Below, piece by piece: positions 18,067 to 22,203 of a stretch of DNA of 29,412 bases. The translations under genes and the position numbers were made by a program. The stretch is taken from IMG/VR virus record IMGVR_UViG_2609459833_000001; one strand, written 5' to 3'. Within the stretch, counting starts at the first letter, position 1, and each line of letters starts with the position of its first letter. The notes under the pieces were generated by a model. That model saw only the letters and a program-made list of their open reading frames with translations. It searched no databases and was not told the DNA's origin. This DNA comes from a virus (taxonomy: Duplodnaviria; Heunggongvirae; Uroviricota; Caudoviricetes).

Positions 18067-21000
18067 ATGAGTAAAGGAAGCAGTAAGGGGCATACCCCGC
18101 GCGAAGCGAAGGACAACCTGAAGTCCACGCAGCTGCTGAGTGTGATCGATGCCATCAGCGAAGGGCCGGTTGAAGGTCCGGTGGATGGATTAAAAAGCGT
18201 GCTGCTGAACAGTACGCCGGTGCTGGACACTGAGGGGAATACCAACATCTCCGGTGTCACGGTGGTGTTCCGTGCCGGTGAGCAGGAGCAGACACCGCCG
18301 GAGGGGTTTGAATCCTCCGGCTCCGAGACGGTGTTGGGTACGGAAGTGAAATACGACACGCCGATCACCCGCGCCATCACGTCGGCAAACATCGACCGAC
18401 TGCGCTTTACCTTCGGTGTGCAGGCACTGGTGGAAACCACCTCAAAGGGGGACCGGAATCCGTCGGAAGTTCGCCTGCTGGTTCAGATACAGCGTAATGG
18501 TGGCTGGGTGACGGAAAAAGATATCACCATTAAGGGCAAAACCACCTCGCAGTATCTGGCCTCGGTGGTGGTGGATAACCTGCCGCCGCGCCCGTTTAAT
18601 ATCCGGATGCGCAGAATGACGCCGGACAGCACCACAGACCAGCTGCAGAACAAAACGCTCTGGTCGTCATACACCGAAATCATCGATGTGAAACAGTGCT
18701 ACCCGAACACGGCACTGGTCGGCGTGCAGGTGGATTCGGAGCAGTTCGGCAGCCAGCAGGTGAGCCGTAATTATCATCTTCGCGGGCGCATTCTGCAGGT
18801 GCCGTCGAATTATAACCCGCAGACGCGGCAATACAGCGGTATCTGGGACGGAACGTTAAAACCGGCATACAGCAACAACATGGCCTGGTGTCTGTGGGAT
18901 ATGCTGACCCACCCGCGCTACGGCATGGGGAAACGTCTTGGTGCGGCAGATGTGGATAAATGGGCGCTGTATGTCATCGGCCAGAATTGCGACCAGTCGG
19001 TGCCGGACGGCTTTGGCGGTACGGAGCCGCGCATCACCTGTAACGCTTACCTGACCACACAACGTAAGGCGTGGGATGTGCTCAGTGATTTCTGCTCGGC
19101 GATGCGCTGTATGCCGGTATGGAACGGGCAGACGCTGACGTTCGTGCAGGACCGACCGTCGGATAAGGTGTGGACCTATAACCGCAGTAATGTGGTGATG
19201 CCGGATGATGGCGCGCCGTTCCGCTACAGCTTCAGCGCCCTGAAAGACCGCCATAATGCCGTTGAGGTGAACTGGATTGACCCGGATAACGGCTGGGAGA
19301 CGGCAACAGAGCTTGTGGAGGACTCGCAGGCCATTGCCCGTTACGGTCGTAACGTCACGAAGATGGATGCCTTTGGCTGTACCAGCCGGGGGCAGGCACA
19401 CCGCGCCGGGCTGTGGCTGATTAAAACGGAGCTGCTGGAAACGCAGACGGTGGACTTCAGCGTGGGTGCCGAAGGGCTTCGCCATGTGCCGGGCGATGTC
19501 ATTGAAATCTGTGATGATGACTATGCCGGTATCAGCACCGGCGGGCGCGTGCTGGCGGTAAACAGTCAGACCCGGACGCTGACGCTCGACCGTGAAATCA
19601 CGCTGCCATCCTCCGGTACCACGCTGATAAGCCTGGTTGACGGAAGTGGCAATCCGGTCAGCGTGGAGGTTCAGTCCGTCACCGACGGCGTGAAGGTGAA
19701 AGTGAGCCGGGTTCCTGACGGCGTTGCTGAATACAGCGTGTGGGGGCTGAAGCTGCCGACGCTGCGCCAGCGCCTGTTCCGCTGCGTGAGTATCCGTGAG
19801 AACGACGACGGCACGTATGCCATCACCGCCGTGCAGCATGTACCGGAAAAAGAAGCCATCGTGGATAACGGGGCGCACTTTGACGGCGACCAGAGCGGCA
19901 CGGTGAATGGTGTCACGCCGCCAGCGGTGCAGCACCTGACTGCCGAAGTCACCGCAGACAGTGGGGAATACCAGGTGCTGGCCCGCTGGGACACGCCGAA
20001 GGTGGTGAAGGGCGTGAGTTTCATGCTTCGCCTGACCGTGGCAGCGGATGACGGCAGTGAGCGGCTGGTCAGCACGGCCCGGACGGCGGAAACCACATAC
20101 CGCTTCACGCAACTGGCGCCAGGGAACTACAGGCTGACAGTCCGGGCGGTAAATGCGTGGGGGCAGCAGGGCGATCCGGCGTCGGTATCGTTCCGGATTG
20201 CCGCATCGGCAGCACCGTCGAGGATTGAGCTGACGCCGGGCTATTTTCAGATAACCGCCACGCCGCATCTTGCCGTTTATGACCCGACGGTACAGTTTGA
20301 GTTCTGGTTCTCGGAAAAGCGGATTACCGATATCAGGCAGGTTGAAACCACAGCCCGCTATCTTGGTACGGCGCTGTACTGGATAGCCGCCAGTATCAAT
20401 ATCAAACCGGGCCATGATTATTACTTTTATATCCGCAGTGTGAACACCGTTGGCAAATCGGCATTCGTGGAGGCCGTCGGTCGGGCGAGCGATGATGCGG
20501 AAGGTTACCTGGATTTTTTCAAAGGCAAGATAACCGAATCCCATCTCGGTAAAGAGCTGCTGGAAAAAGTTGATCTGACGGAGGATAACGCCAGCAGACT
20601 GGATGAGTTTTCGAAAGAGTGGAAGGACGCTAACGATAAATGGAATGCCATGTGGGGCGTCAAAATTGAGCAGACCAAAGACGGCAAACATTATGTCGCG
20701 GGTATTGGCCTCAGCATGGAGGACACGGAGGAAGGCAAGCTGAGCCAGTTTCTGGTTGCCGCTAACCGTATCGCGTTTATTGACCCGGCAAACGGGAATG
20801 AAACGCCGATGTTTGTGGCGCAGGGCAACCAGATATTCATGAACGACGTGTTCCTGAAGCGCCTGACAGCCCCCACCATTACCAGCGGTGGCAGTCCTCC
20901 GGTATTTTCCCTGACATCAGACGGAAAGCTGACCGCTAAAAATGCGGATATCAGTGGTAGTGTGAATGCGAACTCAGGAACGCTCAACAATGTCACGATT

Positions 21001-21480
21001 AACCAGAACTGTACGATTAAGGGCATGCTGGAGGCGACTCAGGTCAGAGGTGACTTCGTTAAAGCTGTATCCAAATCATTTCCGAAACAGGCTGGTACGT
21101 GGGGTAACACGGAAACACCAAACGGGACGGTTACAGTCACCATCAGCGATGATCATAACTTTGACCGTCAAATCATTATTCCGCCCATTATCTTTAACGG
21201 AATAGCGTATAGCGATCCGGGAAGTGGTAATAACCCGGGAGGTACAAGATACACGGGTTATGGTTTTGAAGTTCGCAAAAACGGTGTATTAATCGCATCC
21301 AGAGAAACTAAAGGGGCCATTCCCGGTAGCTACAGTGCGGTTATTGATATGCCGAGTGGCAGGGGAAGCGTCACTCTGGAGTTTAAGGTTTTCCATAAAG
21401 GCAATCAGCGGGCAGGTAATATCACCGACTGTACGGTGATTGTGACCAAAAAAGCGGCTTCAGGCATCAGTATTCGTTGA
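18067..21480 (+). CDS. J: Central tail fibre / host-specificity protein J, with divergent C-terminal receptor-binding module
   Basis: 1137 aa; N-terminal ~980 aa match lambda gpJ ([31 protein letters not shown]...); the last ~150 aa differ from lambda J as I recall it and the DNA is visibly AT-richer from about 21000. Confidence 0.9.
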
Positions 21481-21502
21481 AATATTTATAACCCCAATAA
21501 AT

Positions 21503-21526
21503 GGCGTCAGGAATGACGCCTTTTTT
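21503..21526 (+). terminator. Rho-independent terminator downstream of J
   Basis: GGCGTCA-GGAA-TGACGCC hairpin followed by TTTTTT. Confidence 0.7.
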
Positions 21527-21550
21527 ATTGCAGAAAAGCGAGAGGTAATT

Positions 21551-22150
21551 ATGCGTAAAGTTTGTGCAGCCATTTTGTCCGCAGCCATTTGTCTGGCCGT
21601 ATCCGGTGCGCCTGCATGGGCGTCTGAACATCAGTCCACGCTGAGCGCGGGGTATCTTCATGCCCGGACCAACGTTCCCGGCAGTGATGATCTGAACGGG
21701 ATTAACGTGAAATACCGTTATGAGTTTACGGATACGCTGGGGCTGGTGACGTCATTCAGCTATGCAGGAGACAAGAATCGCCAGCTGACCCATTACAGCG
21801 ATACCCGCTGGCATGAAGATTCCGTTCGTAACCGCTGGTTCAGCGTAATGGCGGGGCCGTCTGTGCGCGTGAATGAATGGTTCAGCGCGTATGCGATGGC
21901 GGGTGTGGCTTACAGCCGTGTGTCGACTTTCTCCGGGGATTATCTCCGCGTAACTGACAACAAGGGGAAAACGCACGACGTGCTGACCGGAAGTGATGAC
22001 GGTCGCCACAGCAACACGTCTCTGGCGTGGGGAGCTGGCGTGCAGTTTAACCCGACCGAATCCGTGGCCATTGATATTGCTTATGAAGGCTCCGGCAGCG
22101 GTGACTGGCGTACCAACAGTTTCATCGTGGGTGTCGGTTATAAATTCTGA
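21551..22150 (+). CDS. lom: Lom-family outer-membrane beta-barrel protein (Ail/PagC/OmpX family)
   Basis: 199 aa with signal peptide MRKVCAAILSAAICLAVSGAPAWA; C-terminal half (...SVMAGP...AYAMAGVA...DIAYEGSGSGDWRTNSFIVGVGYKF) matches lambda Lom, N-terminal half is divergent. Confidence 0.88.
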   Translation: MRKVCAAILSAAICLAVSGAPAWASEHQSTLSAGYLHARTNVPGSDDLNGINVKYRYEFTDTLGLVTSFSYAGDKNRQLTHYSDTRWHEDSVRNRWFSVMAGPSVRVNEWFSAYAMAGVAYSRVSTFSGDYLRVTDNKGKTHDVLTGSDDGRHSNTSLAWGAGVQFNPTESVAIDIAYEGSGSGDWRTNSFIVGVGYKF

Positions 22151-22176: not shown

Positions 22177-22203
22177 AGCCCGCCGGTTCAGGCGGGCTTT
22201 TTT
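22177..22203 (+). terminator. Rho-independent terminator downstream of lom
   Basis: AGCCCGCC-GGTTCA-GGCGGGCT hairpin followed by TTTTT. Confidence 0.75.

Follow-up and report, generated by a model that had tools for sequence, protein, structure and literature searches.

A phage 434-class receptor-binding cassette at the tip of a lambda-like J protein

Introduction

In phage lambda, the Ig-like domains at the C-terminus of trimeric gpJ expose four loops at their bottom, which enter the LamB trimer among its extracellular loops EL4, EL6, and EL9; on binding to LamB, the domain splays at its bottom, and the tail tip begins to open (PMC11101478). According to passages in PMC3509688 and PMC11101478, the receptor of phage 434 is OmpC, and lambda equipped with the fibre gene of 434 switches from LamB to OmpC. 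The A8 and 1A2 tips are likewise natural OmpC-binding gpJ tips, which differ in the OmpC variants that they accept, and the A8 tip has been used in engineered lambda particles (PMC11338833). OmpC binding is found in at least two cassette classes, 434 and A8. With respect to the evolution of the locus, residues 960-1132 of J form a "specificity region" that recombines as a unit, is known to be under diversifying selection, and has indel hot spots at 1010-1013 and 1107-1109 (Maddamsetti et al., bioRxiv 10.1101/242495).

Here, we compare with these systems the J locus of a 29,412-nucleotide stretch of viral DNA (IMG/VR record IMGVR_UViG_2609459833_000001; hereafter the window), for which an earlier note, made from the sequence alone, had proposed that the C-terminal receptor-binding part of J is a swapped module.

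Results

Architecture and backbone of the J protein

Only one long open reading frame, that of J, covered positions 20990-21480 of the window (Table 1). A profile search of its translation returned, in this order, PF24801, PF13550, PF24421, PF24489, PF09327, and PF12421, all above their cut-offs, giving a domain plan of FNIII-A, hub (Phage-tail_3), two Ig/FNIII domains, tail-tip fibre, and C-terminal receptor-binding domain. By its full domain architecture, J is thus a lambda-type central tail fibre protein, gpJ. In a global alignment with gpJ of the lambda reference (NC_001416; locus L001), 944 of the first 973 residues were identical (97.0%), while amino acid identity over the whole protein was 88%. 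Isolated lambda-like phages, for example, PhiR26_1, have morphogenesis regions that match the first 25 kb of the window at 96-98% identity.

Table 1. Features in and around the J tip, with the DNA identity of other phages to the window for the segments scored in the five-way alignment.
Feature	Position in window	Strand	Basis or DNA identity to the window
J, central tail fibre/tip attachment protein, 1137 aa, intact	18067..21480	+	ORF and translation
J backbone, residues 1-973: hub domains, FNIII/Ig domains, helical shaft, beta-prism fibre	18067..20986	+	Identity to lambda
J, aligned segment	20700-20870		Turner 97.7%, ev099 72.5%, lambda 97.1%
J, aligned segment	20871-20996		Turner 91.3%, ev099 92.1%, lambda 90.5%
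Receptor-binding-domain cassette, 434 class, residues ~974-1137	20987..21480	+	Breakpoint fit and identities
Cassette, aligned segment	20997-21480		Turner 50.7%, ev099 98.6%, lambda 47.4%
J-lom spacer, aligned segment	21481-21550		Turner 84.3%, ev099 84.3%, lambda 43.7%
Terminator-like hairpin (GGCGTCAGGAATGACGCC) and run of T, J-lom spacer	21503..21528	+	Hairpin scan
lom, Ail/Lom outer-membrane beta-barrel, 199 aa, 434-type allele	21551..22150	+	Pfam and identities
lom, aligned segment	21551-22070		Turner 97.3%, ev099 96.0%, lambda 50.4%
Aligned segment	22071-22200		Turner 96.2%, ev099 97.7%, lambda 90.8%
Terminator-like hairpin after lom, sequence shared with lambda	22177..22198	+	Hairpin scan
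stf, side tail fibre, intact, ~1024 aa; neighbour of the swapped block, outside it	22215..25289	+	Pfam and alignment
tfa	25289-25873	+	
SAM-dependent methyltransferase	25931-26596	-	
Second tfa, C-terminal fragment	26653-26958	+	
Alpha/beta hydrolase, 530 aa	27145-28734	-	
IS3-type integrase-core ORF	28722-29375	-	

Divergence of the J tip from lambda

Over J residues 974-1137, global alignment with lambda gpJ gave 65 identical positions of 170 (38%), and tblastn gave 37.6% amino acid identity for the last ~160 residues (E 3e-20). Five indels accompanied this divergence: relative to lambda, the J tail has two additional residues after lambda 1011, six after 1043, one after 1078, and two after 1099, and it lacks six residues (lambda 1109-1114). 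A lambda-class, LamB-binding cassette was ruled out by the 37.6% identity to lambda J 974-1132 together with these indels. On the DNA level, a three-segment maximum-likelihood fit placed one breakpoint between the window and lambda in J, at 20987 (codon 974), and the other in lom, at 22071 (codon ~174), with identities of 94.9%, 50.7%, and 90.6% in the successive segments and a log-likelihood gain of 257 over a single segment. The identities between the window and lambda in a three-way alignment that included phage 434 took a similar course, being 94.5% at 20300-20996, 50.2% at 20997-21480, 50.7% in the J-lom spacer, 51.6% in lom up to 22080, and 90.2% beyond. The cassette alone had no match in lambda DNA at blastn sensitivity, and its GC content (0.471 at 20997-21480) was lower than that of the rest of J (0.578) and of the equivalent segment of lambda (0.546).

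Despite the low identity, the tip retained the domain found at this place in lambda. PF12421 (Ig_GpJ_C) was recognized at residues 1001-1136, spanning profile positions 1-134 of 135, its score of 90.4 bits (E 1.3e-25) exceeding the cut-off of 26.2, and the tip matched the solved gpJ tips 9wca (E 7.5e-53), lambda 8xcj (E 6.5e-45), and 8iyk (E 5.7e-44) by sequence. A single-sequence AlphaFold2 model of residues 942-1137 was all-beta and of low confidence (mean pLDDT 49.8), too poor for a fold search or for mapping of the loops. Judged from these alignments, the J tail is a divergent allele of lambda's receptor-binding domain, homologous to it rather than unrelated sequence.

Much of the earlier note's description of J agrees with these results. 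It had J tracking lambda for about 980 residues, as the first 973 do, then departing at 20990, within a few bases of the fitted breakpoint, into a tail that was AT-richer, as the GC contents confirm. The tail had also been described as not matching lambda's, which holds insofar as identity is low (38%) but not beyond that, given that the two still align as the same domain. We looked for high identity of the C-terminus to lambda gpJ and found only 37-38%. The proposed module swap itself is upheld by how abruptly identity falls at codon ~974 and by the mosaic pattern in other phages presented below.

Affiliation with the phage 434 class

The J protein of phage 434 (UMO75286.1 in OL657226.1) was equal in length to that of the window and aligned with it without gaps, at 98% amino acid identity over 1137 residues. 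Within the last 160 residues, 154 were identical (96.3%, 0 gaps), and DNA identity to 434 was 92.6% in the cassette and 97.7% in upstream J. Phage 434 J differed from the window tip at six residues, specifically S1004A, Q1008K, A1009V, N1019D, S1049D, and R1099G (window residue first).

When 50,697 phage records were searched by tblastn for the last 160 J residues, 243 records matched, and these divided cleanly: 74 were at least 93% identical to the query, and the other 169 were all below 60%, with Fels-1 (45%) the best of these among the matches listed. The group of 74 included 434, lambda h434, ev099, Ayreon, cdtI, mEp460, and many Stx1a- and Stx2c-converting phages. Other classes of tip in the search were the Turner/2H10 type, the phage 21 type, and that of lambda (37.6%). 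By DNA, the closest cassettes came from IdasGreatGrand (99.4%) and ev099 (98.6%; 99.4% in amino acids). On this sequence evidence, the J tip belongs to the 434 class (h434) of gpJ receptor-binding cassettes.

The record of lambda h434 imm21 contains a J of 434 length, a 434-type stf, and cargo labelled as 434 region. This hybrid does not narrow down the host-range determinant, its 434-type annotation spanning from J far into the b region.

Receptor and variation within the class

Because the tip shares 96% gap-free identity with that of 434, it most likely binds the OmpC trimer and not LamB. The earlier note had expected a receptor specificity unlike lambda's and had pointed to homologues with known receptors as the way to find it; the expectation is supported by homology to the OmpC-using phage 434, and the search supplied the h434 identity that the note had left unnamed. 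For the phages whose cassettes come nearest to that of the window (IdasGreatGrand, the PhiR series, and mEp332/mEp460), the literature yielded no receptor data, and no peptide sequences of the 1A2 or A8 tips were found in the supplements of PMC11338833.

We compared nine 434-class tips over 160 positions. No indels were found among them, and the 16 positions that varied were clustered at J 1000-1009, 1046-1049, and 1099-1115, leaving an invariant core of 49 residues (1050-1098). All six residues at which the window departs from 434 (1004, 1008, 1009, 1019, 1049, and 1099) were in or next to the variable clusters, near the hot spots of lambda's specificity region. The clustering of variation in the class (window 21066-21411, residues 1000-1115) suggests selection on contact loops, and the range of OmpC alleles recognized by the window tip could be shifted relative to that of 434, while a change of the receptor itself through these substitutions is unlikely. 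It is doubtful that the sub-allele of the window (S1004, Q1008, A1009, N1019, S1049, and R1099) recognizes other OmpC variants, or an additional porin, in comparison with 434. If it did, small clustered differences in the 434 class would represent functional host-range switches and not neutral drift.

Recorded hosts bear on a related explanation, in which the loop substitutions direct this 434-class tip to other OmpC alleles, to OmpF, or to a strain-specific porin, and not to OmpC of K-12. K-12 hosts are recorded for Ayreon (K12) and phi458 (MC1061), both of which have 98% DNA identity to the window in the domain, and MG1655 is recorded as the host of PhiR34_1, which has 95.6% protein identity there. 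Given also the absence of indels within the class and the overall identity of 96% to 434, we regard this explanation as quite improbable, even though the six substitutions sit in segments that vary within the class, with 16 of 160 positions variable in clusters and 1050-1098 invariant, four point mutations in lambda's equivalent region suffice to add the use of OmpF (bioRxiv 10.1101/242495), and A8 and 1A2 show that tips can accept different OmpC variants (PMC11338833).

The J-lom spacer and lom

The hairpin in the J-lom spacer (21503-21520), which is followed by six T, had a folding energy of -16.3 kcal/mol (z -4.1). The annotations of phage 434 and mEp460 put a terminator at this same point between J and lom, and the lambda spacer has a different, weaker hairpin, also followed by a run of T. 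Because lambda has this weaker hairpin in the same spacer, the terminator of the window is an allelic version and not a new element. Downstream of it, lom was a full-length match to PF06316 (positions 1-199 of 199, 407.9 bits, E 8.7e-123), and its product was 95% identical to Lom of 434 versus 44% to Lom of lambda, while its DNA was 97% identical to lom of Turner. Codons 1-173 diverged from lambda (44% in protein, 52% in DNA), and DNA identity was about 90% beyond ~22070. The hairpin that follows lom has a homologous counterpart in lambda (L001 5613-5634) and marks the return to lambda-like DNA.

Several statements of the earlier note concerned this region. Non-lambda sequence is indeed present downstream of J, comprising the spacer and most of lom. 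The new terminator that the note placed after J is a real hairpin at a position that is not new, given the weaker one of lambda, and the divergence that it assigned to the N-terminus of lom extends through codons 1-173. Similarly, the note's breakpoint near the 3' end of J does not exist relative to lambda, from which divergence runs ~590 bp past the J stop, to lom codon ~174; only relative to Turner-type phages does a right edge fall at the J stop.

In phage 21 (L004 1968-2027), J is followed by a terminator and then directly by stf, without lom. As this arrangement illustrates, lom is an optional unit at the J-stf position.

Downstream genes and prevalence

The product of stf carried PF08400, PF03406, and PF07484, with Phage_fiber_2 repeats and a Collar domain. 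Its ATG at 22215 aligned with the stf start of lambda and 434 and with the RefSeq annotation of E. coli AL.H8, and its first ~86 bases aligned closely with both phages. In laboratory lambda stf is frameshifted, unlike the intact gene of the window. The remainder of the window (25289-29412) looks like prophage cargo adjoining an IS element.

Of 5426 complete E. coli genomes, 1975, about a third, had the block formed by the J tip and lom (20990-22090, 1.1 kb) at a coverage of at least 80%, and three had it at 100% identity. The chromosome of AL.H8 contains a prophage stretch identical to the J tip and lom, which adjoins pinQ, ydfK, ynfT, and a truncated ydfJ.

These surroundings raise the idea that the prophage is defective and its J tip a relic without a current role in adsorption, insofar as cargo and an IS3-type ORF occupy the end of the window and the exact J tip-lom match of AL.H8 lies beside the truncated ydfJ and Qin-type pinQ, ydfK, and ynfT. 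This is very improbable in light of the intact J, which has the length of 434 J and no gaps, the intact lom, stf, and tfa, and the fact that the isolates to which the first 25 kb are 96-98% identical, for example, PhiR26_1, are plaque-forming.

Independent assortment of the cassette

DNA identity was scored by segment in a five-way alignment of the window, Turner, PhiR49_2, ev099, and lambda (Table 1). Turner had both flanks in common with the window, that is, the J backbone and lom (91-98%), but a different cassette (~51%), whereas ev099 had the cassette in common and a different upstream J segment (72.5%). Lambda differed from the window in two adjacent units, the cassette and lom. From the mosaic formed by Turner, ev099, and lambda, it follows that the cassette (~490 bp, from codon ~974 to the J stop) has been exchanged independently of both of its neighbours. 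Its left junction lay at the end of a conserved beta-prism segment (...GTLNNVTI...) that is common to all classes. The relationships among these sequences, the breakpoints, the independence of the cassette, and its frequency are direct observations.

In an alternative origin of the J tail, a lambda-type domain would have diverged in place through accelerated point mutation under diversifying selection, without any exchange of cassettes. This origin would fit the homology of the domain to lambda's (37.6% identity, E 3e-20) and the selection known to act on the region (bioRxiv 10.1101/242495), but we rejected it as scarcely credible in view of the step-like breakpoints, at which DNA identity falls from 95% to 50% within a few bases, the drop in GC of about 10 points inside the cassette only, the mosaic occurrence of the same cassette (92-99%) on different J backbones and of different cassettes on the same backbone, and the split of the 243 phage records into separate identity classes, the interval from 60% to 90% being empty and graded intermediates absent.

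The shaft/prism allele of ev099 J, with its 72.5% identity at window 20700-20870, indicates a second recombination junction near 20870.

Discussion

The J tip of the window is, very probably, a 434-class allele that entered a lambda-like J by homologous recombination with a crossover at about codon 974, and its most likely receptor is OmpC. The crossover would have been placed in the conserved beta-prism segment just upstream of the tip. In the virion, three copies of the Ig-like domain would form the tip of the central fibre, with their distal loops predicted to penetrate the extracellular loops of a porin trimer, which for this allele would most likely be OmpC, as for phage 434, rather than LamB. 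Porin binding would then trigger the opening of the tail tip and ejection of the DNA, as solved for lambda with LamB. Both the use of OmpC and these binding mechanics we infer for the window allele from homology.

The tip is a classical h434-type host-range allele accompanied by a 434-type lom, a combination that is already known and very common; recombination in the specificity region, the 434 allele, and the 434 receptor are likewise all in the literature. The value of the finding is therefore limited to annotation, and it matters little beyond. The appropriate annotation for J in this prophage is a protein with a 434-type tip that probably binds OmpC and not a lambda-type LamB binder, a reading which affects the strains predicted to be infectable and the receptor mutations predicted to give resistance. 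The locus also provides a textbook case of a J specificity cassette that assorts independently of the J backbone and of lom.

Relative to known systems, the window tip has in common with the lambda gpJ tip (8xcj, 8iyk) the PF12421 domain, its C-terminal position on the fibre, and the framework motifs FDRQI, NG, IDMP.G.G, and KK...GIS, while the receptor reported for lambda is LamB versus OmpC for 434. Among solved structures, the nearest in sequence is that of A8 gpJ (9wca/9wcb), whose tip occurs in Turner and 2H10. In Turner, this tip is found on the same J backbone and beside the same lom allele as in the window, but the A8 class has only ~44% amino acid identity to the window tip (Turner 43.8%), 50.7% DNA identity, and different loop lengths; an A8-class cassette was ruled out as the identity of the window tip by these amino acid and DNA values. 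The tips of Turner (L005 1351-1965) and 2H10 (L006) had exactly the sequence of the A8 gpJ chain in 9wca, and these two are, then, natural phages with the tip that serves as the OmpC-binding part of the engineered lambda particles. Finally, the swapped segment (974-1137) falls in the specificity region of Maddamsetti et al., of which the window represents one instance, and two of the indels that separate it from lambda, after lambda 1011 and at lambda 1109-1114, are at or beside the hot spots that those authors described.
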